Virus record (IMG/VR): IMGVR_UViG_3300050021_000838
From: an uncultured virus (IMG/VR IMGVR_UViG_3300050021_000838)
Taxonomy: Duplodnaviria; Heunggongvirae; Uroviricota; Caudoviricetes
Reading direction: 5' to 3' (one strand)
DNA length: 64,000 nucleotides
Each line of letters starts with the position of its first letter. The first letter of the stretch is position 1. The notes under the pieces were generated by a model. It was not told the DNA's origin. It made no database searches and saw only the letters and a list, made by a program, of their open reading frames with translations. Shown piece after piece: positions 13,580-55,824 of this stretch. The position numbers and the translations under genes are program-made.

Positions 13580-13600
13580 TTACAAAAGGCGTGCTAAGAA
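13580..13600 (-). promoter_or_regulatory. sigma54-like promoter motif, copy 1
   Basis: TTCTTAGCACGCCTTTTGTAA; ATG 40 nt downstream. Confidence 0.75.
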
Positions 13601-13608
13601 AAAATGAA

Positions 13609-13933
13609 GCCAATACCCGACCTACGTAGCTGGTTCGATAGTGTCTGACCTATCGGATTGGATCATCGCCACCGACTATCAACAAATGCGAAAGGAACTG
13701 TTTCTGAGACGCTCCACCGAGGCATACGTTTTTGCACAAAGTATGCGTGAGCTTCAGTGCGAACACAGAGGTTTGCGGACTGAGTGTCTTTTCTAAGGAC
13801 ACTATTACCGCTAGACCATTCCTTACTCTCATGCAAGTATGCAACCCACATGATTGGTTCTCGCAACTCTTTCAAGGATGCTGGTTATTGCAGCCACCTC
13901 CTAAACGAATTCCGGAAACTGCAGGTACTTGAC
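13609..13933 (-). ncRNA. candidate ~325-nt structured ncRNA
   Basis: Terminal helix GUCAAGUACCUG/CGGGUAUUGGC with G-U pairs favouring the minus strand; several internal helices; no credible ORF. Confidence 0.55.
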
Positions 13934-14140
13934 TTAAACTTTCTTAATTTTAATCTGGCGCGGATCTATCTCGTATTCAATTTCTTCACCGCCCAGTTCA
14001 TTTATAATCGCTAATAACAAGGGATCGGCTTCATCACTGACTTCGTGGAAACAGTTACATGGAATCAGAAACGTCATGTCATCATGTTCTCTTTCTCCAG
14101 TGCCATGGCATAACGGACAATCGTGGTTCGGTACTCTCAT
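13934..14140 (-). CDS. small Zn-finger-like protein
   Basis: CPLCHGTG...CNC motif. Confidence 0.6.
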   Translation of the reverse strand: MRVPNHDCPLCHGTGEREHDDMTFLIPCNCFHEVSDEADPLLLAIINELGGEEIEYEIDPRQIKIKKV

Positions 14141-14171
14141 TAAGATAGACTCAATTTGTTACAAAAATAAA

Positions 14172-15116
14172 TTATTCGATGCCAGTTGCCGGCCATTTCG
14201 CCGAGATTTCAGATATCTCTTCATCCAAGAATGACATCGCACTTTTGACATCCACCGGCATTATCTTCTTAATCGGTTTCCTTCTGGGTGCCTTCATCAT
14301 CTTTTTCATGGGCCAACCCTTTTCCTCAGCTAACGTTAATTCTCTGGGTGCTTTGGATACTCCCATTACTTCCATCTTCTCAATTTCTTCCGGAGTGAAT
14401 GCTGGAGCCAATTTACCGAGCAATTCATCTTCCTTTTTAGACTTTCCTGTTTTCTTATTATTTTCCTTAATGTATGCCTTAATCAAAGCCTCAGCTTCAT
14501 CCATCTTATCAGAGTCAAAGCCTCCGCAGATCGTCCCAAATCCGTCAGTCAGCATATCGTAAGCATTAGCTGCCGCCCCGAGGCATCCATCTTCCCGAAC
14601 CTCCTTCAGCCATTCGGCTTGAACAGCTGCATCAGTAGGAGATACAACCGATTCAAAATATATCGCTGCTGGCAAATATCCGTCCAGACCAGCCAGTTCG
14701 TCCGCCTCTGATTTCCCGCCCTTAAATCCTATGGACATATCCCAAAAGAATCCTTCAGCGTCTTTACCGTCAGCACCGATTACCCGGTTCTCCCATAAGT
14801 AAACTATCTGCCAGCCATTATTATTATCTTCTTTGTACAAGTCCGATACTTTTTTGTAAGTAGCCGTCTCATCCACAAAGTCATTAAGCCCTTCATCCGT
14901 AACTGCTGCGACATATCGATAAACCTTTTGCCAGTCGCCCCTGAGAATCAATTGGGATACTGTATTACTCTTATGCCATTTCGCGAATAACTTTACGAAT
15001 GCCATAGCACCATAAGGCTGGGACCGTGGAGAATTCCAGTGCTTATAAAACGAGGCAAAATTTACCTCCCCTTCTTTATTCTTGCTGACTACGTACGTCT
15101 GATGTCGTTGTCCCAT
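14172..15116 (-). CDS. hypothetical protein
   Basis: Long ORF; start moved to MGQRHQ after AAGGA. Confidence 0.7.
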   Translation of the reverse strand: MGQRHQTYVVSKNKEGEVNFASFYKHWNSPRSQPYGAMAFVKLFAKWHKSNTVSQLILRGDWQKVYRYVAAVTDEGLNDFVDETATYKKVSDLYKEDNNNGWQIVYLWENRVIGADGKDAEGFFWDMSIGFKGGKSEADELAGLDGYLPAAIYFESVVSPTDAAVQAEWLKEVREDGCLGAAANAYDMLTDGFGTICGGFDSDKMDEAEALIKAYIKENNKKTGKSKKEDELLGKLAPAFTPEEIEKMEVMGVSKAPRELTLAEEKGWPMKKMMKAPRRKPIKKIMPVDVKSAMSFLDEEISEISAKWPATGIE

Positions 15117-15314
15117 CCTGTATCCTTTTAATAACTTGACTCTTAAATTGCTTGCTGAACGTAGATTGCTCCACAAGCTTTAATTGTTGGTCCTTAACGC
15201 TGGTCTGCTCTTTAACAAATCGGGCTACAAATTCAATTTTCTTGATTCTGCCTGGTCGCATACTTCTCCTATTTCCTGACTTGGGGTGTTATAAAATTTG
15301 TTATAGGTATGTAC

Positions 15315-15335
15315 TTACAAGTTCCGTGCTAAGAA
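15315..15335 (-). promoter_or_regulatory. sigma54-like promoter motif, copy 2
   Basis: TTCTTAGCACGGAACTTGTAA; ATG at 15261 with AGGAG RBS. Confidence 0.75.
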
Positions 15336-15362
15336 TTTTCGGGATTCTCTGATGCGACGGAA

Positions 15363-15929
15363 CTAAGGATCTACGCGGACGCTCAGAATATCTTTCATTG
15401 TAGTGGGATGTTCGGCTACCACCGATACTGTATAATGAGCCCCTTTTCTTACCGTCAGCTTAGTCAATCGTCGACTGGTAAAGGTCTTTGGATCGCCCAA
15501 CGGAAGAAGTTCCCCATTCACTTCAAGATGCCCCTCTAATACATGCATCGTGTACATGCCATGCGACGGATTTTCGTTAATGCCGAGGATTTCAAAATCA
15601 GCATGAGCGTGAACCGCATACTGAAAGAACCTCCCCGTGGCTTCCTCATGTAACGGTCTTACTATCGAGTGCGGAGTAACTATCGGCGACATCTGAGTTC
15701 GTTTGCACACATGAAAGAAATCCCCTGAGCACGCCCCCAAAGCTGTGGCGATAAGTTTTATCTGGTCATACTTGGGCTGCTGCTCGCCTGAGAGCAATCT
15801 GGATATTACTGATTTGGAAAGTCCTGTCTTCTTGCAGAGCCTGACTTGACTAAAGTCTCTGTCTGACATCATCTTATTTAATCTTGTAGAAAAAATCTTA
15901 ACCTCCCCTATCGATAAAATGTGACACAA
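15363..15929 (-). CDS. XRE-family HTH regulator with a cupin-like C-terminal domain
   Basis: SQVRLCKKTGLSKSVISRLLSGEQQP HTH; C-terminal HVLEGHLEV beta-rich region. Confidence 0.7.
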   Translation of the reverse strand: MCHILSIGEVKIFSTRLNKMMSDRDFSQVRLCKKTGLSKSVISRLLSGEQQPKYDQIKLIATALGACSGDFFHVCKRTQMSPIVTPHSIVRPLHEEATGRFFQYAVHAHADFEILGINENPSHGMYTMHVLEGHLEVNGELLPLGDPKTFTSRRLTKLTVRKGAHYTVSVVAEHPTTMKDILSVRVDP

Positions 15930-16047
15930 AATACGGATAAAATTGTCAGTTAAACTTGCTCGTCTCCGGGCACACTCCGGCTGTTGCTACGCCCTATGCC
16001 TCGCCAATTGTAAAATATGAAAAGGAATTTTATTGTTACAACTTATT

Positions 16048-16317
16048 TTATGAAGTATATCTCAATAAAACTTTTGCGTTTATTTCCTTTTCTAAATGAG
16101 TTACAAATTCAGCAAGTGTTATCTTTAGGTGAGTGCATATTTCCCGAAGTTCTATTATATCTACTTTCCTTTGACCTGTTTCAATCTTACTAATATAGGA
16201 TTGAGGAACACCTAGCTTCTTAGCCAAATCAACCTGAAGAAGCCCAGCTTTAGTCCGGTATTCAGTAAATACCTGGACAAAAAACTTATATTCCTTTTTA
16301 TAGATACTCTTTTTCAC
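16048..16317 (-). CDS. small XRE HTH regulator (controller-protein-like)
   Basis: RTKAGLLQVDLAKKLGVPQSYISKIETGQRKVDIIEL; inverted repeat ATATCC...GGATAT just upstream (16329-16362). Confidence 0.85.
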   Translation of the reverse strand: MKKSIYKKEYKFFVQVFTEYRTKAGLLQVDLAKKLGVPQSYISKIETGQRKVDIIELREICTHLKITLAEFVTHLEKEINAKVLLRYTS

Positions 16318-22072: not shown

Positions 22073-22075
22073 AGA

Positions 22076-26574: not shown

Positions 26575-26575
26575 G

Positions 26576-26959
26576 CTAATTCACGATGTTTTCATTTTCG
26601 GGTAATTTCTTTCTGTAAATCTCCAGTACCTTGATAACCATAGTAATTGCATCTTCGGTGAGATCGAGTCTGTTTGCCATTTGCATGATGAAGGGAACTA
26701 CAGCGGAATCATGTATTTTAATCATGGACGAACCTTCTTCCCCTTGTCTGATCTCATGGAACGGACCGTCATAATAATCAGTGTTCGGCTCAATCTTCAC
26801 CCATGATAAATCTTCCAACATTTCGTTTAACTCCGCCAGAGTCAAGGATTCCATGTAGTCAAAGATCAACTTCTCGGACTGCTCCGGGGACTCGTGTGTA
26901 ATATCATAATCTTTAAGTCCGAGTTTCTCCCATATCACATACGACCAAATCGTTTTCAT
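26576..26959 (-). CDS. hypothetical protein
   Basis: First ORF after motif copy 3. Confidence 0.6.
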   Translation of the reverse strand: MKTIWSYVIWEKLGLKDYDITHESPEQSEKLIFDYMESLTLAELNEMLEDLSWVKIEPNTDYYDGPFHEIRQGEEGSSMIKIHDSAVVPFIMQMANRLDLTEDAITMVIKVLEIYRKKLPENENIVN

Positions 26960-26993
26960 CAAGTTCCTGTTATTTAACTGTTTGAAGATTATC

Positions 26994-27014
26994 TTACAAT
27001 AAACGTGCTAAAGA
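26994..27014 (-). promoter_or_regulatory. sigma54-like promoter motif, copy 3
   Basis: TTTAGCACGTTTATTGTAA. Confidence 0.72.
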
Positions 27015-27034
27015 AAAACCGGATTTCTCCGGTT
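27012..27034 (-). terminator. intrinsic terminator
   Basis: AACCGGA-GAAA-TCCGGTT followed by a T-tract on the minus strand. Confidence 0.7.
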
Positions 27035-27039
27035 GTCAA

Positions 27040-27570
27040 AGGGCGGGCATAGCGGGACCGTAATTCCCCGCTTCTTTAATACAAACCTCCTATGGTTTCC
27101 CAAGGGTTTCAAGTTCCTCGGTTCCCCATTCTCCACCTTCGCTTGAGACGTCATCAGGCTGGAAATAATTCGTACGCATACTCGGATTTTATACTATACG
27201 CCCATGTAAAATCAAAAGGCGGACGTAGCGGACTCCTTACCTTCCACAATTTCATACAAGCCTCCTGTCGGTACCTGTAACCCTTCATTGGTGTTCCGTC
27301 CCGTCTCTCCACCTATCCACACGGTAGGTGCCGATGAGCAGCTGTCTCAAACAGCAACTGACATGCGATGGAAATAATCTTGTATGCGTTCGTAGTTCGA
27401 ACTGTACGTCCATTAAAATGTTATCCTGGCACCCGATTAAGTGATTACGGGGCTTCTCCTATCCAGCCTCATCTCCACCTGCTCCAGATCGGGCTGCTCA
27501 GCTGATGTCTCATCCCTCCTTGGAAGGAAATAACTTAGACAGACACATTACTTGCTATTATGCTACAGGA
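27040..27570 (-). ncRNA. candidate ~530-nt large ornate ncRNA
   Basis: ORF-free, purine-rich on the minus strand, multiple 7-10-bp long-range complementarities, three internal repeated domains, ends at a terminator. Confidence 0.65.
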
Positions 27571-27817: not shown

Positions 27818-28590
27818 TAAACTAAATTTCCTACATTATGTCTTATTAGCTTTTTCATTGCCTCCAGATTCTCTGGCTCAGGCATAGTGAATTCTCTTAT
27901 TAAATTCGTATGACCGTAGTCCATGAACTCCTTGAATTCATACGCCCTGACATCCGTGAACATTTTCATTAACGGAAGCATCAGACTGGTAAATTCTTTA
28001 TCTGTCCACGGCGGAGTCCATACTCCTGACTTGCATAAAACGATTGCACTCAGTTCAATATTCTCTGGCAGTGAGCCAAGTCCGCAGGTGGTCTTGTATC
28101 TTTTCGGGTTGAGACTGGCGTAACCAAATTTCGGTTTGCCATCCTGCTTTCTTCTTTCTTCTGACGGATAAATCTGATGGACGTTCTTTACCGATCCCTC
28201 GCCCAATAAATGTCCGAGCCAGTTTTCGCAGGAGATCTCATTAAATCCATTATTGTAAAAAATATCATGGTGCGAATCCATGTTGATCACCAGATCATAT
28301 TTGCTTTTCCTCAGAGATTCGTAGCCGAACCGGTGACTATCCATTATGAACAGTTGAGCATTATCAGCAATCGTAATATTTTTCTCTTCGAGGATCTCCA
28401 AGAACTCCCATGGTTCCGTAGTTACCTTTATCATTTCCTTGAGGTCTTTACCCTGCATCATAGCTCCGGTGGCTCTAACACCCCACATCATGTCACCGAA
28501 GGATATACCCGCATCCTCATGGAAGTGCATATCCCAAGCCGATGACACCGGGACAAAATAATCCCAATCTATGCTGAGGGCAATCTTCAT
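27817..28590 (-). CDS. UPF0489/arginase-like metallo-protein
   Basis: LSIDWDYF, DSH, INMDSHHD, CENWL, CKSGVWTPPWTD. Confidence 0.65.
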   Translation of the reverse strand: MKIALSIDWDYFVPVSSAWDMHFHEDAGISFGDMMWGVRATGAMMQGKDLKEMIKVTTEPWEFLEILEEKNITIADNAQLFIMDSHRFGYESLRKSKYDLVINMDSHHDIFYNNGFNEISCENWLGHLLGEGSVKNVHQIYPSEERRKQDGKPKFGYASLNPKRYKTTCGLGSLPENIELSAIVLCKSGVWTPPWTDKEFTSLMLPLMKMFTDVRAYEFKEFMDYGHTNLIREFTMPEPENLEAMKKLIRHNVGNLV

Positions 28591-28645
28591 CTATTTCTTT
28601 CTCTTCCTTTGGGTGTTTGTTAAATTTTGTGTTAAAGTGTATAAC

Positions 28646-28666
28646 TTACAAATAGCGTGCTAAGAT
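28646..28666 (-). promoter_or_regulatory. sigma54-like promoter motif, copy 4
   Basis: TCTTAGCACGCTATTTGTAA. Confidence 0.75.
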
Positions 28667-28683
28667 TTATAGGTATCTCCAAC

Positions 28684-31141: not shown

Positions 31142-31615
31142 TCAGAATTCAAGATCCTCTGTTTCCTGAAGATGGGCATCATGATACCCCTTCCCTATCA
31201 GAAACTTTACAAAGTCATCTACGTTATATTCCTCTTCATCCGTCTTCACATACTCATCCCGCAGAATCCGCAATTCCCTCAGTCCGCCTGTGACAACCAG
31301 AACGCCAAGTGCACCCTCATTGTCCTGCAGATTAAAATAATGAGTTTTATCTCTGGGGATCACAATCGGTTTCGTAACTCCAGCCCTTTGAATGGCTACA
31401 TTGGCACTTGCCAGTGCTGGAATCCATTGCTCCAGTGTCATTCTCATTATCGGTTCATCCGGATAGTCCAGATGCATCTGCAAAGTGTGGGCAAGATGGC
31501 AAACGCTATCTCCCCTCATAAAAAATCCGGGCCAGTCCTTACCGAACTGAACAACTCCAGTCTCTACCCGTTCGGTCTCATCAAACGGAATTATTCTTAC
31601 TGGTACTTCTTCCAT
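31142..31615 (-). CDS. hypothetical protein
   Basis: RVETGVVQFG.DWPG.F.RGD motif; coupled to the ligase stop. Confidence 0.6.
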   Translation of the reverse strand: MEEVPVRIIPFDETERVETGVVQFGKDWPGFFMRGDSVCHLAHTLQMHLDYPDEPIMRMTLEQWIPALASANVAIQRAGVTKPIVIPRDKTHYFNLQDNEGALGVLVVTGGLRELRILRDEYVKTDEEEYNVDDFVKFLIGKGYHDAHLQETEDLEF

Positions 31616-32739
31616 TATGCAGCCTCATCGATGTCTGCTTCAAGGCGTATAGCAAATGCTTCTCCGGGCTTACCGACCGCTATCGTCGGAACTCCATCCT
31701 CAGACAGATCGAAATACTTAACCATCAGCATTTTGCCAATGTAGCTCTCCCCATGTTCAAACCAGTATGCTTTCTTCGAATAGCTACCGACAGGCACCAC
31801 CTCGAAAGTTTTGCCATTAGGCAACCCGCAAGTGAAGGTAACACAACCTTTGTTTCTGCCGACTCCATCTGTAAACCCTACGATGGGAAATTCTTTATCC
31901 TTGAAACTTTTTACCTTCAGTACGTCATAGGTCTCTTTGCCAAGGACATACGGAGCCTTGATATTACGAACCATAGCACCTTCATAGCCCTCCAATACGA
32001 ATCGTTTCTCATAAGCGAGGACTTCAGCTTCATTGTTAGCGATGAACGTTTCTTCCACCACGATACTCGGACTATCGATTTTGCTGAATATGTCATTCAA
32101 TAATTCCAGTCTTGCATCCTGTGGCATAGAGAGGTCATCCAGATTCACAAGGTCAAAAGCATTGAAATTCATGGCATCAGACTTTGCTCCACGATATTTC
32201 TTTACCCGCCTATTGCACTCCTGAAGGTTGATGCCATGCAGATATATTTCACCGCATGGAATAATGTTCGCCGGAATCTTCCCCGCCAAGGCTTTATTTA
32301 TATGCTGTACGGTATCATACGATTTATTGCCACGACTCTGCAGTTTGATATCGCTGATATCGCCGACAGCCATCGTATTAAGTCCATTCAGCTTATGCTG
32401 AACTATGCAGGGATATATAATCTTCTTCTTATGGTCATCAAATACATTGGCATGCTGCGGAAGGATCTTCGTAGTCTCCTCTGCGCAATCCGGTGTCAAT
32501 GAATACTTGACATCCAATTTCTTCTGCCACTGACTTTTAATTTCAAGTTCCGCCTGCTGTTCAGGTGTGGTTTCATTGGCTTTACCGATGTTCTTACCGA
32601 CGCAGGCTACAGGTTCTGATTCCCTGAGCTTACCGCCCATCTCACCGAACTCTTTAATAATGTTACATCCTTCCGTGCGGATCGTCCATTGCTGGATCTT
32701 GCCCGTCTTGGCTTTCTGATACAATGTTGCTAATATCAT
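31615..32739 (-). CDS. ATP-dependent DNA ligase (phage type), paralog A
   Basis: Motif I QHKLNG, III CGEIY, IIIa FNAFD, IV EGYEGAMVR, V LKVKSF, C-terminal OB fold. Confidence 0.88.
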   Translation of the reverse strand: MILATLYQKAKTGKIQQWTIRTEGCNIIKEFGEMGGKLRESEPVACVGKNIGKANETTPEQQAELEIKSQWQKKLDVKYSLTPDCAEETTKILPQHANVFDDHKKKIIYPCIVQHKLNGLNTMAVGDISDIKLQSRGNKSYDTVQHINKALAGKIPANIIPCGEIYLHGINLQECNRRVKKYRGAKSDAMNFNAFDLVNLDDLSMPQDARLELLNDIFSKIDSPSIVVEETFIANNEAEVLAYEKRFVLEGYEGAMVRNIKAPYVLGKETYDVLKVKSFKDKEFPIVGFTDGVGRNKGCVTFTCGLPNGKTFEVVPVGSYSKKAYWFEHGESYIGKMLMVKYFDLSEDGVPTIAVGKPGEAFAIRLEADIDEAA

Positions 32740-33476: not shown

Positions 33477-34181
33477 TTATGTTTTACTATTATCAATTCC
33501 AACAAACGGCTGCAAACCTTTGCCGCCATTGTACCAGAACAAATTCTTGAACAAAATGTCGTTATCATTCAGGACTTTCACCCGATTCTTGTTGACATAT
33601 TCCACCAGATCCGAGTGACTACCGATTTCTCGGTCATTCGTCATATCCCGCCATCCTGATCCGGATACTTCGATGGTAATTTCTTTTGCATCCTCAATCT
33701 TCATGGTTAATCTTGCTGCTTCAGCTTTCTTTTCGTTTGCCTCCTGCACCCGCCACATGATTGCGACTGACAAATCCCCTAACTCGCAACACCATTTAGG
33801 ATGCAATCCTTCTTCCGGACATCTCCATACAAACGAGACACCCATATCAATAAATTTCAATGTCATGTCAATAAGCCCAAGCATGTGCCTGACACCCATA
33901 TCTGCTTTTCTAACGAACTCAACATTACATTTCTCATCCCCGAAGACAGGACTCTTGCTTTCTTTGTCCTTGTAAACCATCTGCATGAATTTCCATGTAT
34001 CAGCATGGACGCCCTTCTGGGATAATCGCGCCTGATGATACAGGCATACTTCCGTATCCAGAGTAACGCAATTTTCATATTTGATCGGCTCCATATTCTC
34101 GGGTGCCGGACAAATGATATTAAGCGGTTTCGCTTCTACGGTGTGAGATTCACCGTTGCTTGTCATCGTGAATTCGGACAT
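33477..34181 (-). CDS. hypothetical protein
   Basis: First ORF after motif copy 5. Confidence 0.65.
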   Translation of the reverse strand: MSEFTMTSNGESHTVEAKPLNIICPAPENMEPIKYENCVTLDTEVCLYHQARLSQKGVHADTWKFMQMVYKDKESKSPVFGDEKCNVEFVRKADMGVRHMLGLIDMTLKFIDMGVSFVWRCPEEGLHPKWCCELGDLSVAIMWRVQEANEKKAEAARLTMKIEDAKEITIEVSGSGWRDMTNDREIGSHSDLVEYVNKNRVKVLNDNDILFKNLFWYNGGKGLQPFVGIDNSKT

Positions 34182-34219
34182 TATCAGGTTACCTGTTTTT
34201 GGGTTGTTATAAGGTATAC

Positions 34220-34240
34220 TTTCAAAGACCGTGCTAAGAA
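34220..34240 (-). promoter_or_regulatory. sigma54-like promoter motif, copy 5
   Basis: TTCTTAGCACGGTCTTTGAAA; its TAG also serves as the stop of the upstream ORF. Confidence 0.75.
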
Positions 34241-34514
34241 ATAATTGGTTCAGTATCTTCGGTTATTAAAATATCGTACAGTCTCCAGTCCTCTTCATCG
34301 AACAAATCATAGACATCCGATTCTGGCGTATGGCTGATAATCACTGTATCCTTAACATGATCGAACTCGGTAACCAGCCGTGAAGGTCTAGCGCCATCTA
34401 ATATGCTTACGGCTATCTCTTCGAGCGCATCCATGTCGGATTCAGAATAATCTTTTATTTTCTGCTGGAGAAGTCTGACCAGCTCATCGACCTTTATTTC
34501 ATATTTCTTGTTCT

Positions 34515-34952
34515 TCATACTTGAAACTGCTCCTCTTTATCCGTCCACGGATTCGTCGAAATGAAATATCCGATACGGTTTACCACATGGGCGCCGGCTA
34601 TAACATAAGTCTTACTATCATCTCCATCTACCAGCGTCCATACCAAACTCGGATCTGTAACCTTAATATGGTCCAACTCGAAGCCATAGGTCTCAAAGAG
34701 GAATCCTTCCCAAGGGGCGTCTTGAATTATATGGTTGGCGACCAGTGGATATTTCGCTATGAAGCCTTCCCAATCATCATCTTCATGTGCTATTTCCATT
34801 CCCAAACCTGTGTAGTCCATGTAATCTTGTATCTTTTCGAACAAGCTTTCCTCGTCTGGAGTCAATACTGGGCGGCCTTTCATGTCCTGCCAGATCGCCG
34901 ATATGATTTCATCCGCCTTGTCCTGTTGCTTGTATTCTTTCTCTTCTGCCAT
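34515..34952 (-). CDS. hypothetical phage protein
   Basis: FETYG.E...VWTLVDGD...G.HVVNRIGY. Confidence 0.65.
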   Translation of the reverse strand: MAEEKEYKQQDKADEIISAIWQDMKGRPVLTPDEESLFEKIQDYMDYTGLGMEIAHEDDDWEGFIAKYPLVANHIIQDAPWEGFLFETYGFELDHIKVTDPSLVWTLVDGDDSKTYVIAGAHVVNRIGYFISTNPWTDKEEQFQV

Positions 34953-35885: not shown

Positions 35886-36164
35886 TCAGTTATTCTCATT
35901 TTTATTCGTTTTCAAAATCACGTTCACATCCCCCATTAAGCTCTTGCTCTCCTGGTGAAACTCAGCCAGATCATTGACCACATGTTCAAATTGTCTCTCG
36001 TCCAAGCCAAAATATTCGAAGTCGCCCACCCAATCCGAGTTATTCTTGGCATTCACGCTGATTATTAGCCAGCGCTCATGTTTGATTGCAAATACTAATG
36101 TCCTCCACAACCAATATAATTTGTGCGTTCCGGTCTGGAAACCCGTTTTTATCCCAGTGAGCAT
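35886..36164 (-). CDS. hypothetical protein
   Basis: First ORF after motif copy 6. Confidence 0.6.
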   Translation of the reverse strand: MLTGIKTGFQTGTHKLYWLWRTLVFAIKHERWLIISVNAKNNSDWVGDFEYFGLDERQFEHVVNDLAEFHQESKSLMGDVNVILKTNKNENN

Positions 36165-36200
36165 CTTATCCCTGTTATTTTGAGTGTTATGAAGTGTAAC

Positions 36201-36221
36201 TTACAAGAAGTGTGCTAAGAA
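36201..36221 (-). promoter_or_regulatory. sigma54-like promoter motif, copy 6
   Basis: TTCTTAGCACACTTCTTGTAA. Confidence 0.75.
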
Positions 36222-36252
36222 ATATTTGGTCTTACAAATATGAAAATCAGTG

Positions 36253-36663
36253 CTACGCAGCTGCTTGCATTTTGTTCTTGATTTCTCCAAGAAACGCCAG
36301 AACCTTCGGGTGCAACCTCGTATTACGTGAACCATAGCGGATACATCTTTCTGCAATCACTTCCGTTATGAAGTCCAGTGGCATTTTCTTGTCCAACTTT
36401 ATGATGGCTTCGGATATATCTTCATAGGCAGTGGTAAAATCATGGTAGCTGGGCGTCATTGGTACACCGCCAGCGAATTCTGCCGAACTGATCGTAAAAC
36501 ACTTACGCCCTAATCGGTGAATGGCAGGGTTGTCCTGGGCATTCTTCATTTCTGTTGCGAATATTTTAAGCTGGTTGGCTCTTTTTTGTGCATCCCAAAC
36601 CATCTGGGAGACTTTCGTGATCGTTTGCTCAATCGAGGACTGAAACTCCTTGGACTCCATCAT
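36253..36663 (-). CDS. hypothetical protein
   Basis: Single ORF between motif copies 7 and 6. Confidence 0.65.
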   Translation of the reverse strand: MMESKEFQSSIEQTITKVSQMVWDAQKRANQLKIFATEMKNAQDNPAIHRLGRKCFTISSAEFAGGVPMTPSYHDFTTAYEDISEAIIKLDKKMPLDFITEVIAERCIRYGSRNTRLHPKVLAFLGEIKNKMQAAA

Positions 36664-36703
36664 TATACCTTGAAACTGTTATTTTTGTGTTATGAGGTAT
36701 AAC

Positions 36704-36724
36704 GAACAAGTTCCGTGCTAAGTT
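36704..36724 (-). promoter_or_regulatory. sigma54-like promoter motif, copy 7
   Basis: AACTTAGCACGGAACTTGTTC, abutting the parB stop. Confidence 0.7.
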
Positions 36725-37574
36725 ATTTTTTAGCTTTCAGAACCCGTAACTTTTCAGTTAACTGTCTAATTAAGTCTTTTTTATCAGTATACTTGAAGGT
36801 CAAACTCAGGACCGTAGACTTGATTGCATGCTTATCCCTGATTTCCCTTGCCATCACCATTGCATCTTCTGCGGGGACGAATTCCTGATAAATTATTTTG
36901 TCGAACAAGGCTTTTTGTTCATCCGGGAAATCCTTAATCAGGTGCAAAGCTTTTGCGTGGCCGATAGACATTGGAGTCTTAGCTTCCTTCTTGAAACTTA
37001 CTATCTCTTTTTGCATTTCTTCAGGCAGATTCAGGATCCTAACATAATTCTTTCTTGTCGATTCTGATATTCCAAGCATTGCCTCCACTTCAGACCAGGG
37101 TGCATTTTCTCCCAGCATGCCCTTGTACTCCAAAAGAGCGTATGCTTTATCCACCACATTCAGATCTTCCCGACATAAATTCTCAATCAACTGCTTAGCA
37201 AAGATGTCCTTGCCATCAGAAGGCTTCAGAATCATGCATGGCAGTTCCGCTATGCCAAGATCTCGTGCCGCCCGATATCTTCTCTCCCCCGTAATCAAAA
37301 CAAACGTACCAGCGTCTTCTGAGCGAACTGTGAGTGGCTGCAATATTCCATGCATCTGTATGGAATTCATCAATTCCTGCATTTTAGCGGGATCAAACTC
37401 CTTTCTGGGCTGGTTTTCGTCCGGATGAACGAGTTCTATTGCGATTATTCGGGCATTAGATAACCTTTTTGACTGACTATACCCGCCATCGGACTGGAAT
37501 TTACTGGTCAATTCAATTCCAGGTCTATCGTTCTTTAGGGATTCATTAAGCTGTTTCGTAAAATTTTTCGACAC
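36723..37574 (-). CDS. parB: ParB/RepB/Spo0J partition protein
   Basis: PDENQPRKEFD, HGILQPL, LITGERRYRAA, IENLCREDL, HTH. Confidence 0.92.
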   Translation of the reverse strand: MSKNFTKQLNESLKNDRPGIELTSKFQSDGGYSQSKRLSNARIIAIELVHPDENQPRKEFDPAKMQELMNSIQMHGILQPLTVRSEDAGTFVLITGERRYRAARDLGIAELPCMILKPSDGKDIFAKQLIENLCREDLNVVDKAYALLEYKGMLGENAPWSEVEAMLGISESTRKNYVRILNLPEEMQKEIVSFKKEAKTPMSIGHAKALHLIKDFPDEQKALFDKIIYQEFVPAEDAMVMAREIRDKHAIKSTVLSLTFKYTDKKDLIRQLTEKLRVLKAKK

Positions 37575-38345: not shown

Positions 38346-39665
38346 CTACTCCTTCTCAGGGGGCACGACGTGCCCCCTCTGTTCAAGAATCTTATTTATG
38401 GTCACCAAAATGGCTCCCCGAATGAAAATCGGGGCATTTTCGTACAATTCCACCGTGAATTCCTTTAAGGGGACACCGTATTTCTTCAATCCGTCCTTAT
38501 TGGCATAATCGAATGCCTCTGGATCAGATTTTTCCAGAAGGACAATCGCCTCATCAAATAATTTCTTTTGTCCATCTTTCGTAAGAGCCAGCCATTGTTT
38601 CCTTAATTGCTGGTCCTTCGCCAGTCTTATTTTGTCCCTCCCCTTACCCAACTCCTCCTTTTCGTGACGTTCATTCTTATTCTTCAGGATCTTCATTTGT
38701 TCTTCCCTGAACTTGACATATCCTTTGGGAATTTCATATCCATTTTCAAGAGCCGATATCAGAAAACCGGTTATGTTTTTCTCCGCCTTTGAATATCCGA
38801 GCTTCAAACTTTCAACCCACTGGGCAATTTCTTCTTCATCGAACCGGGTGAGCAATTCCTTAACTCCATCTTCCGTGACACCTAAATTCTTTAACTCACC
38901 GGCTAGTCCGGAAGCAAATAAATCAGGGGACTCCGGGGCCGGCAATGACGAGCCTGGTCTTCTTGAAATCTTGAATTTCACAAAGTCGGGTTTTCGGTTC
39001 GGTTTGTATTCGACCTCGATGTTAATCTCGGCATCAGGGATCGAGTGAATATCTTCGATGGGCTTATTTATCAATTTCTTTTTCAGATCTCGCAGGTCCT
39101 GGTATTCGTTGACTCCCACTCCCATTAGTTTCTTGAATATCGAAATCGGAATCCATGGAGTCTCTCCATAAGTTCTCTTGACATCATAATAGTCGATACA
39201 GAGTTCATACATCGCAAGTGAGTATTTCGACATGAAGTTATTTTGCATCCGCAAGTTGATCCTTGCATACATTCTTGGATTATATAACTTCTCTCGCAGT
39301 CCCTTGTAATATCCCCAATAAATCTTGCCTTCCTTAAACGTAGCACCAGCCAAGAAAGTAGTCGTACCCCATTCCGCCACACCATCCTTCCCCAGAATAT
39401 TCCATTCGATTTGCGTAGTATTCAAAGCTATGAGTGTGCTTTTCAGATAGTCCCGATTCGAATCTCCATACTCCAACATATCACATAGTTCTATAATGGG
39501 CATGCTATATTCTTCTTTATTCTGGAGTTCATCATAGGCGTGGGCAAGTAGTACGTTCCAGGCTTTTCGTTGTAGTAAACTTACTACATTATTCACCTGA
39601 ATCGACGCAGAATGCTTAATGACCGACTGCGGTCTAGGCGTATTCGTTGTAATTGTCTTGGTCAA
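38346..39665 (-). CDS. Rep_3 family plasmid replication initiator
   Basis: VIKHSASIQ..SLLQRKAWNVLL..AY, IEWNIL, P.MYARINL, SKYSLAMYELC.DY; TTG start. Confidence 0.88.
   Translation of the reverse strand: MTKTITTNTPRPQSVIKHSASIQVNNVVSLLQRKAWNVLLAHAYDELQNKEEYSMPIIELCDMLEYGDSNRDYLKSTLIALNTTQIEWNILGKDGVAEWGTTTFLAGATFKEGKIYWGYYKGLREKLYNPRMYARINLRMQNNFMSKYSLAMYELCIDYYDVKRTYGETPWIPISIFKKLMGVGVNEYQDLRDLKKKLINKPIEDIHSIPDAEINIEVEYKPNRKPDFVKFKISRRPGSSLPAPESPDLFASGLAGELKNLGVTEDGVKELLTRFDEEEIAQWVESLKLGYSKAEKNITGFLISALENGYEIPKGYVKFREEQMKILKNKNERHEKEELGKGRDKIRLAKDQQLRKQWLALTKDGQKKLFDEAIVLLEKSDPEAFDYANKDGLKKYGVPLKEFTVELYENAPIFIRGAILVTINKILEQRGHVVPPEKE
38358..38378. promoter_or_regulatory. candidate parS palindrome, copy 1
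   Basis: AGGGGGCACG-A-CGTGCCCCCT, 15 nt upstream of the parA start. Confidence 0.6.
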
Positions 39666-39715
39666 AACGATTGCTCTTGTGTTACGGGAACAAACTTAAT
39701 AAAATCATTGGGACA

Positions 39716-39745
39716 AAAGCAAATATAAACGTCCACATTTGTCAA
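39716..39745 (-). promoter_or_regulatory. rep promoter overlapped by an iteron
   Basis: TTGACA (39740-39745) followed by the iteron TATAAACGTCCACA (39724-39737). Confidence 0.6.
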
Positions 39746-39790
39746 GTGTCCGCATTATAACTTTCTTGCAGTACAATTTTCAGGAATGTT

Positions 39791-40257
39791 ATGAATACTC
39801 TATACTTTGCTGATTGTTTAGACGTGCTAAAAGATTTGTGCCATTATCACCCAGACCTAAGCTACATAGATCCACCATTTAATTCAAAACGCGATTATAA
39901 TATCCTTTTCGAGTCCATTGATATCAAGGTTTCGACGGATATTTTACTTTCACCAAATCTGACGAGAAAAGAGGGTTGTCACTGGTAGAGATCAAAAGCG
40001 GGCATGTCAATGTCAAGAACGTCCGGGAATTTATTCAGGTTCTAAAGACCAAGAAGGCTGACCACGGTGTTTTCGTCTGCTTCAAGGATAAAGCCTATCC
40101 TAATCGATACGACAAGGTTCAGATACTAACTGTTGAGCATATTCTGGACGGTATAGGAATTAACCTTCCTTTGGAGCAGGGACTGAAGAAAAGCACGTTC
40201 AAAGCCGCTACTAAGTCTTTAACTCCCATTACGAAGGAAGAATCTTTTTTCGATTAG
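39791..40257 (+). pseudogene. internally deleted DNA methyltransferase / Mrr-like nuclease fusion remnant
   Basis: N-terminal fragment NTLYFADCLDVL...YIDPPFNSKRDYNILF plus out-of-frame C-terminal fragment VEIKSGHV.V...GVFVCF...QILTVE.IL...TFKAA; the middle is missing. Confidence 0.75.
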
Positions 40258-40261
40258 TCGG

Positions 40262-40700
40262 TATAAACGTCCACAATCGACTTAATACTGATATAAACGT
40301 CCACATTCATTTTCGAATGATATAAATGACCACATTGTAAACGTCCCAACTTGGTGCCTCATTCATCCCTTCAGGTAAGTCCAGACACCTATTTTCAGTG
40401 TTTTTAGCCACTTATGGGCATGAATTTGAGGTCAGAAACCGTTATAGACGTCCACAATCAGCCCGGAATATAGACGTCCACATTACATTGATATAAACGA
40501 CCACAGTTCTGATATGAACATCCACAAAACCCATTATAAACAACCCCTTTTCATAATACAAACATCCACAGAAATCGTTATAAACGACCACAATAGTAAC
40601 CATAACGACAAGCCTTATAATGAGTTTCTCGATTACAAAACAATTAAAACTATTAAAATTATAAAACAACGTAGTAGTTTCTTATTCATTATTTATTAAT
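40262..40700. repeat. iteron array and AT-rich tract: probable replication origin
   Basis: TATA(A/G)ACG(T/A)CCACA-like units at 40262, 40292, 40321, 40443, 40469, 40492, 40513, 40535, 40557 and 40579 (the last six at 21-23-bp period), then AT-rich 40630-40700. Confidence 0.88.
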
Positions 40701-43688: not shown

Positions 43689-44088
43689 TCGACATACTCC
43701 TCAGATTTTTAGTTATTGGTATCATTTTATTATCACTACTGATCACAGCCCATTTTACTGGTCTGTTTGTCCAGATTACAGCTGGAACAAATTCTCTTTT
43801 CTCATCGATGCACATGACTAAAACTTCTTCGCCTGATAGCAGGAAGTAATTGCCGTCAAAATCATATATAATCGGTCTGGGCAGGAACTTCTCCAGCTTG
43901 AGCTTCAGCATTTTCTTGTAATGCATATCCTTTCTTCCCTTGACCTGATTAAATGCTGTCAGCGGAATGTCCATATACAAAGTGTGCTTCCATTCGATAG
44001 GGGAGCCTTTGCCGGATTTCGACAGGACATCATATCTTGCGAGTGCTTCCTCTATGGTCTCCGTCGTTAATCCCTGATAAAATTCCAT
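43519..44088 (-). CDS. hypothetical protein, possibly a degenerate ParB/Srx-like domain
   Basis: PRPIIY...NYFLLSG resembles the ParB-N pattern but lacks the HR motif; first ORF after motif copy 8. Confidence 0.45.
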   Translation of the reverse strand: MEFYQGLTTETIEEALARYDVLSKSGKGSPIEWKHTLYMDIPLTAFNQVKGRKDMHYKKMLKLKLEKFLPRPIIYDFDGNYFLLSGEEVLVMCIDEKREFVPAVIWTNRPVKWAVISSDNKMIPITKNLRSMSNVKDEAERKRWLGTEPEEKGRKENGLPEGTGNCLRDEERNSVSKGDTNRIPTEVLC

Positions 44089-44128
44089 GCTCTTGACATT
44101 CCGTTAAATAATGCGTAAAACTTTTATA

Positions 44129-44149
44129 TTTCAAAAACCGTGCTAAGTT
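44129..44149 (-). promoter_or_regulatory. sigma54-like promoter motif, copy 8
   Basis: AACTTAGCACGGTTTTTGAAA. Confidence 0.72.
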
Positions 44150-44186
44150 TTGTCTTAGATAAGAATGTCGGACTGCCGTTACTCCC

Positions 44187-48110: not shown

Positions 48111-48608
48111 CTATTGTGACTGCAAACACTCCCCTTCTCGTGCTACAATTTTCTCCACATACAAACTTTCATCAGGTGCTTCAAAGTTAAACGGACCTTG
48201 ATGTCCGGTGGCCGGTATCGGGATTTTCAAAATTCTCGGACCCTCCATGATGTATCCGAATCGTCCAGCTGAATACCCGCCAAACATTAGTTCGGGCATT
48301 CGAATCTTTGTGAGGTTCACATAGAAGCCTGGGTTTACGTCCTGTATCGGATAGCCACCCAAGACATTTACTTTGCCAAGTATCTTGCCGAGGTTCTTCT
48401 CCAGATCTCTTCTCGTAAGTCCGATAGACTTTAATGCTTCCGCAAATTCGGGTATCTGGCAGACCTCTTTCTGATATGTCGTCCATTTCTTGCCAGCATG
48501 GATGAGCAAATCTCCCTTAATATTCCTCAGCCATGATCTCGTTTCAATTTTCTTATGACCGTAAACTATCAAAGTAGCCCACGGCTCGTATAATGTTAGT
48601 ACCCGCAT
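48111..48608 (-). CDS. ASCH domain protein
   Basis: LTLYEPWATLIV.G.KKIETRSW...GDLLIHAGK...PIPA.G.QG. Confidence 0.88.
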   Translation of the reverse strand: MRVLTLYEPWATLIVYGHKKIETRSWLRNIKGDLLIHAGKKWTTYQKEVCQIPEFAEALKSIGLTRRDLEKNLGKILGKVNVLGGYPIQDVNPGFYVNLTKIRMPELMFGGYSAGRFGYIMEGPRILKIPIPATGHQGPFNFEAPDESLYVEKIVAREGECLQSQ

Positions 48609-48647
48609 CTTATCCCTAATTGGTTATAAAATTGTTGTATGATTTAC

Positions 48648-48668
48648 TTTCAAATCCCGTGCTAAGAA
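48648..48668 (-). promoter_or_regulatory. sigma54-like promoter motif, copy 9
   Basis: TTCTTAGCACGGGATTTGAAA. Confidence 0.75.
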
Positions 48669-48900
48669 AAAATAAAGGCAGACCGGAATTTCACCAACCA
48701 CTTAATTTCCTTATAAAGTATCATAGCTGAGAAATACTCCCACGTACAGACTGCTCCTTTATATATCCCTATGGCATACTTGATATCCAATACTTCTACG
48801 ATTGTCTCTTCATCGAGCCATTCCTGGATGGCAATTCCTAAGTTTTCAGCCGAAGCCATCGTAATTGTCTCAATCTTAATTTCATTCGATTTCGTTGGAA

Positions 48901-49380
48901 TCATGACGGTACTTCCTTATCCTTAGCAAGTATTGGCAGTTCGACTTCCTTTACAGGAATAGAGAACTGGTTTGCCAGAAACTGTTTGAGCGAATCTACG
49001 CTTCCATCAGCCTCCATGAATTCCTCATATACCTTTTCGAAGGTTGCTTTACCAGCATCAAAATCATTGAGAGCCTTCACTACCCTGCAATCCTTTGGCT
49101 TATGCTCCCCATGCCATAGTCGAATATAATCGATAATCTCCTTGGACTGGTCTTCCTCGAAAATAACTCCCTGATAGTTCTCGTCTCCTAGTGGCTCCCC
49201 GAAAAATCCGACCAACTTATTGGCGAAATCTTCTACTGCTTCCTTATCCGGACCTTTATACGTAGCAATGCCCTCCCCTGTCGCCAGAGAATATACATCC
49301 ACTTCGTTTATTTCGCCGTCAAGAACTCTCTGAACTACGATTGTTTCATCGTTATACTTGTAATGCGCTGAGGACATCAT
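48901..49380 (-). CDS. hypothetical protein
   Basis: ORF with AAGG RBS. Confidence 0.55.
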   Translation of the reverse strand: MMSSAHYKYNDETIVVQRVLDGEINEVDVYSLATGEGIATYKGPDKEAVEDFANKLVGFFGEPLGDENYQGVIFEEDQSKEIIDYIRLWHGEHKPKDCRVVKALNDFDAGKATFEKVYEEFMEADGSVDSLKQFLANQFSIPVKEVELPILAKDKEVPS

Positions 49381-50401: not shown

Positions 50402-50537
50402 TATCTCGTCCTCTCTAATTTATCCATTAACTCTTTGGCATACTTCTCGATTTCTTCTTCAGGAACACACATTGCTTTAAGAAATGCAAGAAAGTCATCC
50501 CAACGTTCTTCAATATAAATCTTTACTAAATCCATTA

Positions 50538-52323: not shown

Positions 52324-52327
52324 TATT

Positions 52328-52923: not shown

Positions 52924-52966
52924 TGTCGTAACTTGATTTGTTAAAAAATATGTTATGAGGGATAAC

Positions 52967-52987
52967 TTACAAGAAGCGTGCTAAGAT
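52967..52987 (-). promoter_or_regulatory. sigma54-like promoter motif, copy 10
   Basis: ATCTTAGCACGCTTCTTGTAA. Confidence 0.75.
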
Positions 52988-53000
52988 TTTTTGTGCCGTT

Positions 53001-53657: not shown

Positions 53658-54124
53658 ATCTGTCCTTTATCCAATTTTTCAAAATATACGTCCAGCAGAT
53701 ACATTAACGACTCGCCATTATCTCCATCACCACCTGACTTCCAACAGAAGTAGTCATCATTCTCTTCATAATCAATTTTGGCTATGGCTTTATAAAGCTC
53801 TTCAGACCTATCATCATGGTCAATTCCCTGTTCCCATCGCTGATTCGGATTCAAACCTGACCGGGGATCTATTACAAGTTCAAGTGCTTCCTCTTTCACA
53901 AATATTTCGTCACCCTCTTTCGACCTAACATGATATATCGGAATGAAATCAATCGGATGTAACAAGATGGAAGTTATCCTTCCAACAAGGCCATCCTTTC
54001 CATCCAAACGGCTCTCTTGTTTATTCATGGGCAATAGAACAGATATAAAACTTTCATTCGAACGATGGATCGTTGGGAAAATCTCCCCAGCGTTTACCAA
54101 TATCACTTTATCCTTAATCTTCAC
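53654..54124 (-). CDS. hypothetical protein
   Basis: WEQGIDH...WKSGGDGDNGESLMYLLD. Confidence 0.6.
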   Translation of the reverse strand: MKIKDKVILVNAGEIFPTIHRSNESFISVLLPMNKQESRLDGKDGLVGRITSILLHPIDFIPIYHVRSKEGDEIFVKEEALELVIDPRSGLNPNQRWEQGIDHDDRSEELYKAIAKIDYEENDDYFCWKSGGDGDNGESLMYLLDVYFEKLDKGQI

Positions 54125-54144
54125 TTGAACTCCATTTATTTTTG

Positions 54145-54229
54145 CACGTAGAGCAGGATTCGAACCTGCGAAGGCTTTCGCCGACAGTTTTGGAGACTGT
54201 TCCCTTAGACCAGACTTGGGTATCTACGT
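54145..54229 (-). tRNA. tRNA with CCA anticodon (Trp) and a long variable arm
   Basis: Acceptor ACGTAGA/TCTACGT plus G73; anticodon arm ACAGT-CTCCAAA-ACTGT; variable arm GGC-GAAA-GCC; T arm GCAGG-TTCGAAT-CCTGC. Confidence 0.88.
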
Positions 54230-54618
54230 ATTAGCGCCCGGCTTATTCCACCGGGCAAATTCGATTCCCTGCATTTCGATAGAAAATCTTCATGCTATCC
54301 AGATCTTCGCTTTCAAGGAAGTCTTGTTTCACTTCCATTATCTCAAAGGTCAGTAGTCGGAGAAACTCTATCATATATCTTTTCTGAGACATAGTACCTC
54401 CATCTTTGTTATATGAGTCTGGCCAGAAATCATTTTCTTACTTTAACTGTATTTCCTACATAGGAAACTTAATCATTCTTCTGTCTCCGTTACTTCCGTC
54501 AAATCGAAGTTACTTGGGAACTTTGCTATTACCGACAGCTCCTCGTTGGCTTCATCCTCTGTATCTGCCGGTATCGTAATTGAGTTACCATTCGAATCGT
54601 CAAAAATGTATAAGGCCA

Positions 54619-55752
54619 TTATGCTACCTCATCCATATCTTCGTACAGTCTGATAGCAAAACCCTCGCCAGGTACGCCAACTGCAATACTTGGTATTCCC
54701 TTTTCAGAGTAATCATAAAACTTAACCATTAGCATTCTTCCAATGTGCTCATCTGCGTGTCTGAACCAGTAAGCCTTATCTTCATAAGTTCCTTTCGGTT
54801 CGACATCGAACGATGCACTTCCATCCGGCAATTCGCATAACCATGTTACACATCCAAGGTTCTTCCCTTTGCCTGATTTGTAGCCGACTATCTTGAATTC
54901 CGCGTCCTGGAATGATTTCACTTTTAGCACATCATAGGTTTCCTTACCCATGACATATACCGCTTTCATGTTTCTAACCATCGCACCCTCAAAGCCTTCC
55001 TCTACGAATTGTTTTTCGTAAGCCAGAACTTCAGCTTCATTGTTGGCAATAAAGGTTTCTACTTCTTTGATGCAAGGCGCTGTTACTTCTCTCAGGAGTT
55101 CATGTATCAGGGCTAGTCTTTCATCCTGTGGCATATTCGGTTGGTCAACTACAACGCAATCGAATACATGGAATTCCATAGCATCTGATCTGGGACCTCT
55201 GTACTTTTTAACTCTTCGGTTGGTTTCTTCCAGCGTGAGTCCATGTAGGTAAATCTCTCCAAGTGGAAGGATATTCTTCGGTACTTTGCCAGCAAAAGCA
55301 TTATTTATATGCTGGACTGATGAATATTCTTTGTTGCCTCTGCTCTGCAGTTTAATCCCCGGCATCTCTCTTACCATTGTGTTCAGCCCATTGTACTTTC
55401 TCTGGACAAAACATGGGTAAATTACTTTACTTTTATGTTTGCCAAATTCATTTGCATGCTGAGGCAGGACTTTCGTGGTACCAAGAGCTTCTTCCCGTGT
55501 CTCTGAATATTTCTTATCCAGTTTCTTCTGCCATTGAGCCTGAGCCTCTTTCACTGCCTGTTCTTCCGGAGTAGTTTCATTAGCTTTGCCAATGTTCTTT
55601 CCGATTACCGCTACCGGAGCTGACGACTGTAATTTGCCGCCGACTTTCCCATATTCTTTAATAATCGAATTGCCTTCCACTCGGATCGTCCACTGCTGAA
55701 GTCCACCTTCCTTGTTTTTCTCATACAAGGTTGGTAAAATGACTGTTTGCAT
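54619..55752 (-). CDS. ATP-dependent DNA ligase (phage type), paralog B
   Basis: QRKYNG, LGEIY, FHVFD, EGFEGAMVR, LKVKSF. Confidence 0.88.
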   Translation of the reverse strand: MQTVILPTLYEKNKEGGLQQWTIRVEGNSIIKEYGKVGGKLQSSAPVAVIGKNIGKANETTPEEQAVKEAQAQWQKKLDKKYSETREEALGTTKVLPQHANEFGKHKSKVIYPCFVQRKYNGLNTMVREMPGIKLQSRGNKEYSSVQHINNAFAGKVPKNILPLGEIYLHGLTLEETNRRVKKYRGPRSDAMEFHVFDCVVVDQPNMPQDERLALIHELLREVTAPCIKEVETFIANNEAEVLAYEKQFVEEGFEGAMVRNMKAVYVMGKETYDVLKVKSFQDAEFKIVGYKSGKGKNLGCVTWLCELPDGSASFDVEPKGTYEDKAYWFRHADEHIGRMLMVKFYDYSEKGIPSIAVGVPGEGFAIRLYEDMDEVA

Positions 55753-55803
55753 AGTTTACTTCCTTTTACTTGTTACTGTTATTTAATTGTTATGAAAGGA
55801 TAC

Positions 55804-55824
55804 TTACAAGTTCCATGCTAAGAA
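55804..55824 (-). promoter_or_regulatory. sigma54-like promoter motif, copy 11
   Basis: TTCTTAGCATGGAACTTGTAA. Confidence 0.72.

Follow-up and report, generated by a model that had tools for sequence, protein, structure and literature searches.

The DNA analysed here, a stretch of 64,000 nucleotides (64 kb; the window hereafter) from the uncultured virus record IMGVR_UViG_3300050021_000838, carries part of a phage- or plasmid-like element of peat soils that, judging from its sequence, looks to start at least 11 gene blocks from one near-invariant promoter resembling the promoters of sigma-54. The 11 sites are almost certainly promoters of a single class, and each heads a standard cassette in which a G-free leader and a ribosome-binding site follow the promoter. 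We give about an even chance (roughly 0.5) to the reading in which a holoenzyme of the sigma-54 type recognizes them, with A at position -25 accepted in the -24 element.

The motif family and its promoter unit

A TTAGCAYNNNNNTTG pattern search of the window recovers 11 exact copies of TTAGCAY-N5-TTG, all on the minus strand, with first bases at 13597, 15332, 27011, 28663, 34237, 36218, 36721, 44146, 48665, 52984, and 55821. The chance expectation is 0.33 copies, and the maximum among 100 dinucleotide-preserving shuffles is 3. The initial annotation of this DNA had reported 11 minus-strand copies with fixed spacing, and all 11 are confirmed; its list of sites also stands, except that the positions it gave are the 3' ends of the motifs and are a few bases off. 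A search with the 16-base core TTAGCACGNNNNTTGTAAGT, allowing up to three mismatches, returns the same 11 sites and not one more (0.41 expected), so that the family is sharply bounded. In an unbiased repeat search it is the largest repeat family of the window. No copies occur between 1 and 13.5 kb or in the two AT-rich islands at 16-24 kb and 56-64 kb (GC content 0.29-0.32, against 0.41-0.44 elsewhere in the window), and the absence from the islands had likewise been noticed before.

With the first T of TTAGCAC numbered 0, alignment of the 11 copies reveals a conserved unit of about 55 nucleotides (nt), longer than the 17-nt motif first described. Its layout is an A/T tract, C-TTAGCACG-N4-TTG(T/A)AAGTwA, a G-free leader with two (A)TAACA boxes, and a ribosome-binding site. 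The tract consists only of A and T from -8 to -2 and is followed by C at -1 in 10 of 11 copies. TTAGCA is present in all 11, followed by C (10/11), G (10/11), and four weakly conserved bases; TTG is again present in all 11, and after it come T or A (8 and 3 copies), A (10/11), A (10/11), G (10/11), T (9/11), A or T, and A (8/11). The two bases after TTG had been given as TA in seven copies, AA in three, and TT in one, which agrees with our counts of T in 8 and A in 3, with the next base A in 10 and T in 1. From position 20 to about 43 the leader contains almost no G. In its first (A)TAACA box, AACA falls at about positions 30-33, the A at position 30 is invariant (11/11), and A at position 28 occurs in 7 of 11 copies; the second box, (A)ATAACAG, ends near position 45, and the two TAACA boxes lie about 11 nt apart. 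The ATAACA leader boxes of the initial annotation are therefore real, with their invariant A at position 30 and the second box at about 40-45. In five units a ribosome-binding site (AGG, AGGGA, or AAGG) follows directly after the second box, at positions 44-52 or thereabouts.

The placement of the copies is promoter-like: all 11 are co-oriented with genes and keep within a fixed range of distances to start codons, which lie at positions 52-73 after the first T in every copy. The earlier figure of 35-56 nt is the same distance counted from the end of the 17-nt motif, and the promoter-like behavior previously described, with its co-orientation and its fixed start-codon distance, holds throughout. 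For the transcription start we drew on mapped promoters of Flavobacterium psychrophilum, using 11 of the rows that carry the label SM4/Sig54, which appears 95 times in supplementary file 3 of PMC9723704; in these rows the start of sigma-54 (SM4) promoters is mapped 24-29 nt, mostly 27-29 nt, after the first T of TTGG. Applied to the present units, this calibration leads to the conserved A-rich start of the leader, from which we infer that transcription begins at the first (A)TAACA box, about 27-30 nt past the first T. The ribosome-binding sites at about 44-52 in five units require a start upstream of about 44, which fits the geometry of sigma-54 promoters and excludes a sigma-70 reading with TTGTAA as the -35 element.

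No second promoter class was found in the window, only one short-spaced look-alike at 9803. This sequence, TTTGCAC-AAT-AAGTAAGTA at 9780-9803 on the minus strand, has its boxes 2 nt closer together than the family and sits in a 393-nt gap upstream of a gene starting at 9471; it could be a degenerate or variant member of the family. Parts of the element are present in four metatranscriptome runs, as short assembled contigs that show no transcript starts, strand, or levels. A contig from one RNA library (run X15) matches the window only over the promoter core at 28637-28670, with different flanks, and one of these flanks reads as another TAACA-type leader, which suggests a further copy of the motif outside the window or in a relative of the element.

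Agreement with sigma-54 promoters and competing explanations

The extended consensus of sigma-54 promoters is YTGGCACG-N4-TTGCW. Aligned on GCACG, the core of the present unit reads T-27 T-26 A-25 G-24 C A C G-20, N4, T-15 T-14 G-13 (T/A)-12 A-11, agreeing with the consensus at 12 of 14 positions and with identical spacing. The shared features are T-27, T-26, G-24, C, A, C, G-20, the 4-nt gap, T-15, T-14, G-13, and W-11; the core departs from the consensus only in having A instead of G at -25 and T or A instead of C at -12. Copy by copy, the spacing of 4 nt between G-20 and T-15 is present in 11 of 11, and so are T-26, the C and A that follow G-24, TT, and A/T at -11, with the next C and G in 10 of 11 each. 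The GC expected at -13/-12 is replaced by GT in 8 copies and by GA in 3. Escherichia coli and other bacterial sigma-54 promoters, for which genomic SELEX (systematic evolution of ligands by exponential enrichment) gave the E. coli consensus TGGCACnnTTnTTGC in the available text of PMC8743547, thus share with these sites two boxes one helical turn apart, the 4-nt gap after G-20, the T, G-24, CACG, TTG, and W-11 bases, and a start predicted about 12 nt past the -12 box. The present sites differ from them in having A at -25 and T/A at -12 in all 11 copies, an extra AAGT, no common upstream activator sites that we could find, and no rpoN or activator gene in the window.

The departure at -12 has natural precedent. 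In the 11 F. psychrophilum rows, the base at -12 is T in 5, C in 4, A in 1, and G in 1, and GG is retained in all 11 (PMC9723704, supplementary file 3). Since T or A occupies -12 in 6 of these 11 rows, GT and GA at this position lie within natural sigma-54 variation, at least in that lineage, and only the A at -25, giving AG for GG, falls outside known sigma-54 variation and is unusual. The SM4 promoters resemble the present sites in their form TTGGCACG-N4-TTG(T/A/C), in the commonness of T/A at -12, and in an A/T-rich upstream flank, and they differ in keeping GG in 11 of the 11 rows where the element has AG. Among five of the 13 TTAGCAC-containing rows of the same file there is no SM4 promoter. 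In 61 genomes from the phylum of a Chitinophagaceae metagenome-assembled genome (MAG), there are 100 occurrences of TGGCAC-N5-TTGCA and 79 of TGGCAC-N5-TTGTA, where the reversed-pattern controls give 46 and 62, respectively (control sums added by hand); the larger excess of TTGCA indicates that C is still the commoner form there and that T has a smaller excess. The initial annotation had proposed sigma-54 geometry with both invariant dinucleotides changed. The geometry stands, as does the 12/14 match to the consensus and the replacement of GG by AG; the claim that both dinucleotides are altered from an invariant state does not, because the invariance at -12 was overstated, C being absent from 7 of the 11 F. 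psychrophilum rows.

A changed -24 doublet is also mechanistically plausible. Single changes in the RpoN box of E. coli sigma-54 (R456H, R456Y, and R456L) shift recognition from GG to GA, GC, or GT while function is kept, with good mutual orthogonality, as described in the available part of PMC12096077, and a sigma-54 of altered specificity is therefore conceivable in nature. The likeness to our case is that one RpoN-box residue re-targets GG and insulates a private promoter set from the host regulon; the differences are that the second G is altered in the engineered variants (GA, GC, GT) and the first G here (AG), and that the variants are laboratory constructs, whereas here the promoter motif is what is known and the factor is putative.

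As far as our samples reach, the AG form appears private to the element. TTAGCACG-N4-TTGWA is not enriched in 121 proteobacterial genomes from the class of a Herminiimonas genome (9 occurrences against 15 in the control) or in 121 genomes of a Bacteroidota-type phylum (10 against 24); the host lineage may lie outside these 242 bacterial genomes. The initial annotation had named use of the same AG/GT consensus by the host's own RpoN regulon as a finding that would refute a private system; the lack of enrichment in 121 + 121 genomes is a weak argument against such a regulon, as the host may be unsampled. The exact motif has 73 loci in IMG/VR, all single matches, as chance predicts, and 12 single matches in GTDB (one genome per species), with no multi-copy contig in either collection. 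An intergenic look-alike in IMG/VR contigs of 363 kb and 108 kb has no further copies there (2 against 2 in the control). Eight of the IMG/VR loci are phage tRNA genes with a GTA (Tyr) anticodon loop, in which a chance TTAGCAC-N5-TTGTAAGT reaches from the D-arm into the anticodon loop and can mislead scans of whole collections for this motif. Two GTDB MAG chromosomes, labelled Thermodesulfobacteriota and Dadabacteria, have in common about 350 nt of conserved sequence that ends just past a chance motif match, at the edge of a conserved coding block; from its sequence, the shared block is probably the end of a common mobile element. We found no report of such a promoter family in the open-access papers searched on phages and sigma-54.

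Several observations weigh against recognition by sigma-54. The doublet at -25/-24 is AG rather than GG in 11 of 11 copies. AAGT at -11 to -8 is strongly conserved and is not a sigma-54 feature, and a stretch of about 20 near-invariant bases is seen more typically in promoters read by a phage-encoded polymerase or sigma factor than in a host regulon. No gene for rpoN, an enhancer-binding protein, or any other factor that might serve the motif was found in the window: none of its 184 open reading frames (ORFs) on both strands matches the Sigma54, Sigma54_activat, sigma-70-region, or RNA polymerase families of Pfam, which bears out, for the Sigma54 and Sigma54_activat domains, an earlier statement that the window holds no rpoN or GAFTGA-type activator, and PHROGs and NCBIfam gave no transcription-related match among 40 proteins each. 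No common motif was found between -220 and -10 of the 11 sites, where the best word is present in 8 of 11 and in 8-10 of the random controls; if an enhancer-binding ATPase is involved, it uses no shared nearby site. Our IMG/VR and GTDB scans found no relatives that carry the motif, which therefore has no comparative support, and the copies of the element itself, at 94.7-98.5% identity, differ too little to allow covariation analysis. At four sites the promoter directly adjoins or overlaps the stop codon of the preceding gene. There are also contigs from the RNA libraries that extend through promoters, such as 26798-27145 and 36067-36484 in run X15, although these may reflect read-through or carry-over of DNA.

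The main rival, unlikely in our view yet deserving serious attention, is that the reader is an element-encoded polymerase or sigma factor unrelated to sigma-54, whether a T7-like single-subunit enzyme or a phage factor of the sigma-70 family, and that the likeness to sigma-54 is coincidental. Phage promoter sets, both of the T7 type and the early, middle, and late sets of T4, comprise many near-identical copies heading gene blocks, and the present set resembles them in its near-identical copies on one strand of a phage-like genome and in its standard leader. Such a reader would suit the roughly 20 near-invariant positions in 11 copies, the phage-like gene content, and a motif that is private, with no multi-copy match in IMG/VR or GTDB and no enrichment in the 242 genomes. 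In a T7-like register, C-TTAGCACG-N4-TTGT would be -17 to -1 and the transcript would begin with AAGT; counted from C to T15, the block has a length of exactly 17 nt, and the conserved AAGT comes next. Measured against the contiguous block of about 23 base pairs including +1 that characterizes T7-type promoters, the 17-nt block with AAGT fits in length, but the unconserved 4-nt gap interrupts the recognition region, where such a gap is unusual for promoters of this type. The sequence and geometry found here do not appear to match any of the T7-type or T4 sets, and the 64-kb window holds no polymerase or sigma gene, including none for a phage polymerase, MotA/AsiA, or a gp55-type factor. Even when other promoter classes and registers are taken into account, we roughly estimate the probability that agreement with sigma-54 at 12 of 14 positions together with the spacing is due to chance at well below 1 in 1000.

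It is less probable still that the motif is an activator or repressor site, of the kind of the T4 MotA box or the lambda CII site, beside a weak host sigma-70 promoter whose -10 element is either TAAGTw or the A/T-rich stretch between the two TAACA boxes. TTG with TAAGTw does look loosely like an extended -10, but as a -10 element TAAGTw leaves no -35 at 16-18 nt, the distance to TTAGCA being only 9 nt, and T at -7 occurs in 6 of 11 copies only. TTGTAA, a spacer of 16-18 nt, and an A/T-rich hexamer can be read by eye in most copies, but with TTGTAA as the -35 the start would fall at about 47-50, which in at least five units is within the ribosome-binding site or beyond it. TAACA boxes about 11 nt apart recall tandem protein sites, and two XRE-type helix-turn-helix (HTH) genes are present; against this, the Pfam scan of the window gave no match to a MotA- or AsiA-type family, and sigma-70 hexamer pairs are not enriched (34 against 44.6 expected at 26-46 kb). 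A sigma-70-type promoter as such was rejected on the same hexamer count and on registers in which a -35 is missing or transcription would start within the ribosome-binding site. Two Bacteroidota promoter types were also rejected, the sigma-A type (TTTG at -33 and TAnnTTTG at -7) and SM5 (TAnnTTGY), as defined in the available part of PMC9723704: positions 8-9 of the present unit are G/C and a variable base rather than TA. Finally, the copies might not be promoters at all, but RNA signals at gene junctions (for processing, translation, or antitermination) or DNA sites for recombination, partition, or replication, an explanation to which we assign very little probability. The RNA-library contigs across promoters, the four copies at upstream stop codons, and the resemblance of the G-free leader to a translation-enhancing 5' untranslated region are what one might expect of RNA signals. 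However, two boxes around an unconserved 4-nt gap are typical of protein-DNA recognition and not of an RNA fold, no self-complementarity is visible, and the iterons and origin of the element are found at other positions and are of another sequence; the strict orientation on one strand and the fixed start-codon distance are as expected of a promoter, and the RNA-library contigs may be the product of read-through or DNA carry-over.

The individual units and the element that carries them

All 11 units lie on the minus strand. Unit 1 (13552-13605) is composed of the A/T tract, C-TTAGCACG-CCTT-TTGTAAGT, and the G-free leader, and precedes the ATG, at 13540, of an ORF of 101 amino acids (aa). Unit 2 (15287-15340) lies just downstream of an XRE-type HTH gene (15363-15929); its first ATG, at 15261, opens a 61-aa ORF, after which comes a 334-aa ORF from 15176. 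A terminator-like hairpin (27017-27034) precedes unit 3 (26966-27019), whose 128-aa ORF has its start codon at 26959-26962, and a strong hairpin precedes unit 4 (28618-28671), with the ATG of a 257-aa ORF at 28590. Strong upstream hairpins are found at these 2 of the 11 sites only, and a general terminator-then-promoter architecture was therefore rejected.

Unit 5 (34192-34245) has the TTGAA form and leads to the ATG of a 234-aa ORF at 34181, and unit 9 (48620-48673), also of the TTGAA form, to the ATG of an ASCH-domain ORF at 48608. In both, the TAG within TTAGCAC is the stop codon of the upstream ORF: 34234-34236 for the ORF at 34234-34518, and 48662-48664 for the ORF at 48662-48904. A GG-type box would be unable to supply a TAG stop codon in this way. 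Unit 6 (36173-36226) has A instead of G after TTAGCAC and precedes the ATG of a 92-aa ORF at 36164. Unit 7 (36676-36729), of the TTGTTCGT form, begins 1 nt past the parB stop (36723) and is followed by the ATG of a 136-aa ORF at 36663. The most divergent copy is unit 8 (44101-44154), with TTGAAATA and weak leader boxes, ahead of the ATG of a 189-aa ORF at 44088. Unit 10 (52939-52992) is followed by a short ORF from 52923 and then by a DUF1937 gene (start 52891), and unit 11 (55776-55829), which has the TTAGCAT form, by the ATG of an ATP-dependent DNA ligase gene at 55752. This ligase gene (54619-55752) has a paralogue at 31615-32739, with proteins 65% identical, and of the two only the gene at 54619-55752 has a promoter directly upstream.

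From its gene content the window can be read as part of a large phage-plasmid or phage-like plasmid of a bacterium that uses Shine-Dalgarno sites. All plausible genes are on the minus strand. A plasmid-type replicon at 38346-40600 stands amid phage-like gene content: a Rep3-type initiator gene (38346-39665, minus strand, Pfam), at least seven iterons of the form TGTGGACGTTTATA that flank the Rep3 gene on both sides of a 776-nt gap, and ParA and ParB genes downstream. Beyond ParA and ParB, Pfam recognizes a pair made of a CobS-like AAA+ and a CobT-like VWA protein, a T4-gp1-type deoxynucleoside monophosphate (dNMP) kinase, MazG, an HD domain, ASCH, DUF5131 (Gp37/Gp68), DUF1937, DUF3768, DUF5662, and a PC4-like protein, and the two XRE-type HTH genes lie at 15363-15929 and 16048-16317. 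Most other ORFs have no match in Pfam, PHROGs, or NCBIfam, and ESM Atlas returned the DUF5131 family only. The AT-rich islands carry defence genes, namely a GTPase-associated system (GAP1, DO-GTPase1, DO-GTPase2, and GASH) with a PNP_UDP-family gene, and a type III restriction-modification pair; the second island begins beside a tRNA-like gene (56085-56156). Another tRNA gene (54145-54229, minus strand, 85 nt), called by both ARAGORN and Rfam, combines a CCA (Trp) anticodon with a long variable arm, which is usual for Leu, Ser, or Tyr tRNAs and not for Trp. At 5851-5995, in a gene-free gap of 243 nt, three tandem 23-nt repeats (5890-5975) lie between paired 33-nt direct repeats, and this may be a second regulatory or origin-like region.

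Phage and plasmid collections contain no near-identical DNA. A metagenome scan with the Rep protein returned the same element on three short contigs, at 94.7-98.5% identity, and nothing else; in two variants of 98.3-98.5% identity the promoter core is unchanged. The element occurs in peat, permafrost, wetland, and soil runs from 15 studies. Its proteins give little guidance to the host: ParA is 27-37% identical to proteins of plasmids from many phyla and of 101 Bacteroidota-type genomes, all equally distant, and the best matches of Rep3, CobT, the ligase, DUF5131, and the dNMP kinase, at 30-43% identity, are in phages and plasmids of many hosts. Of 84 core genes, 48 have a Shine-Dalgarno-like word upstream, while the figure for random positions is 18%. 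As flavobacteria are described as having no Shine-Dalgarno sites in the available part of PMC9723704, a Bacteroidota host is doubtful.

A possible reader and its implications

If a sigma-54-type holoenzyme is the reader, the 11 sites would be the core promoters of one transcription class of a phage-like, plasmid-type element. The cassette would then consist of the A/T tract, a -24-like box (C-TTAGCACG), the variable 4-nt gap, and an extended -12-like box, TTG(T/A)AAGTwA, with transcription starting at about 27-30, a G-free and unstructured leader of about 20 nt ending in AATAACAG, a ribosome-binding site, and the start codon. Bacterial core RNA polymerase with a sigma-54-type factor would read this cassette, the RpoN box of the factor accepting or requiring A at -25 of the -24 element instead of G. 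Such a factor could belong to the element or be the sigma-54 of the host, in native or modified form. A further step, which we think rather unlikely, is that the factor is encoded by the element or otherwise altered and that the two form a natural orthogonal sigma-54 system. In that version, either a sigma-54 paralogue of the element or a factor that re-tunes the sigma-54 of the host would bring the RpoN-box change that reads AG, and the pre-late genes of the element would be insulated from the host sigma-54 regulon and vice versa. With its extended -12 box (TTGTAAGT), the promoter might depend less on an enhancer-bound activator, although activator independence is pure inference. A profile scan of IMG/VR for sigma-54 gave 6 loci, all with the canonical RpoN box, which the scan patterns demand and which makes the scan blind to variant boxes.

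Sigma-54 promoters are usually viewed as having a near-fixed GG/GC signature and as serving stress and nutrient regulons of the host rather than the main programme of a mobile element. A mobile element with a dozen or more operons under a sigma-54-like promoter whose -24 doublet is systematically altered would mean that the specificity of sigma-54 has diversified in nature as it has under engineering, that phages appropriate the sigma-54 polymerase as T4 does the sigma-70 polymerase, or that an unrelated polymerase converged on this DNA geometry. Should the reader prove to be an ordinary phage polymerase, the 11 sites would be a routine phage promoter set. A private system, if that is what the element has, would be a natural counterpart of the engineered R456 variants and would offer synthetic biology a natural orthogonal pair of promoter and factor.

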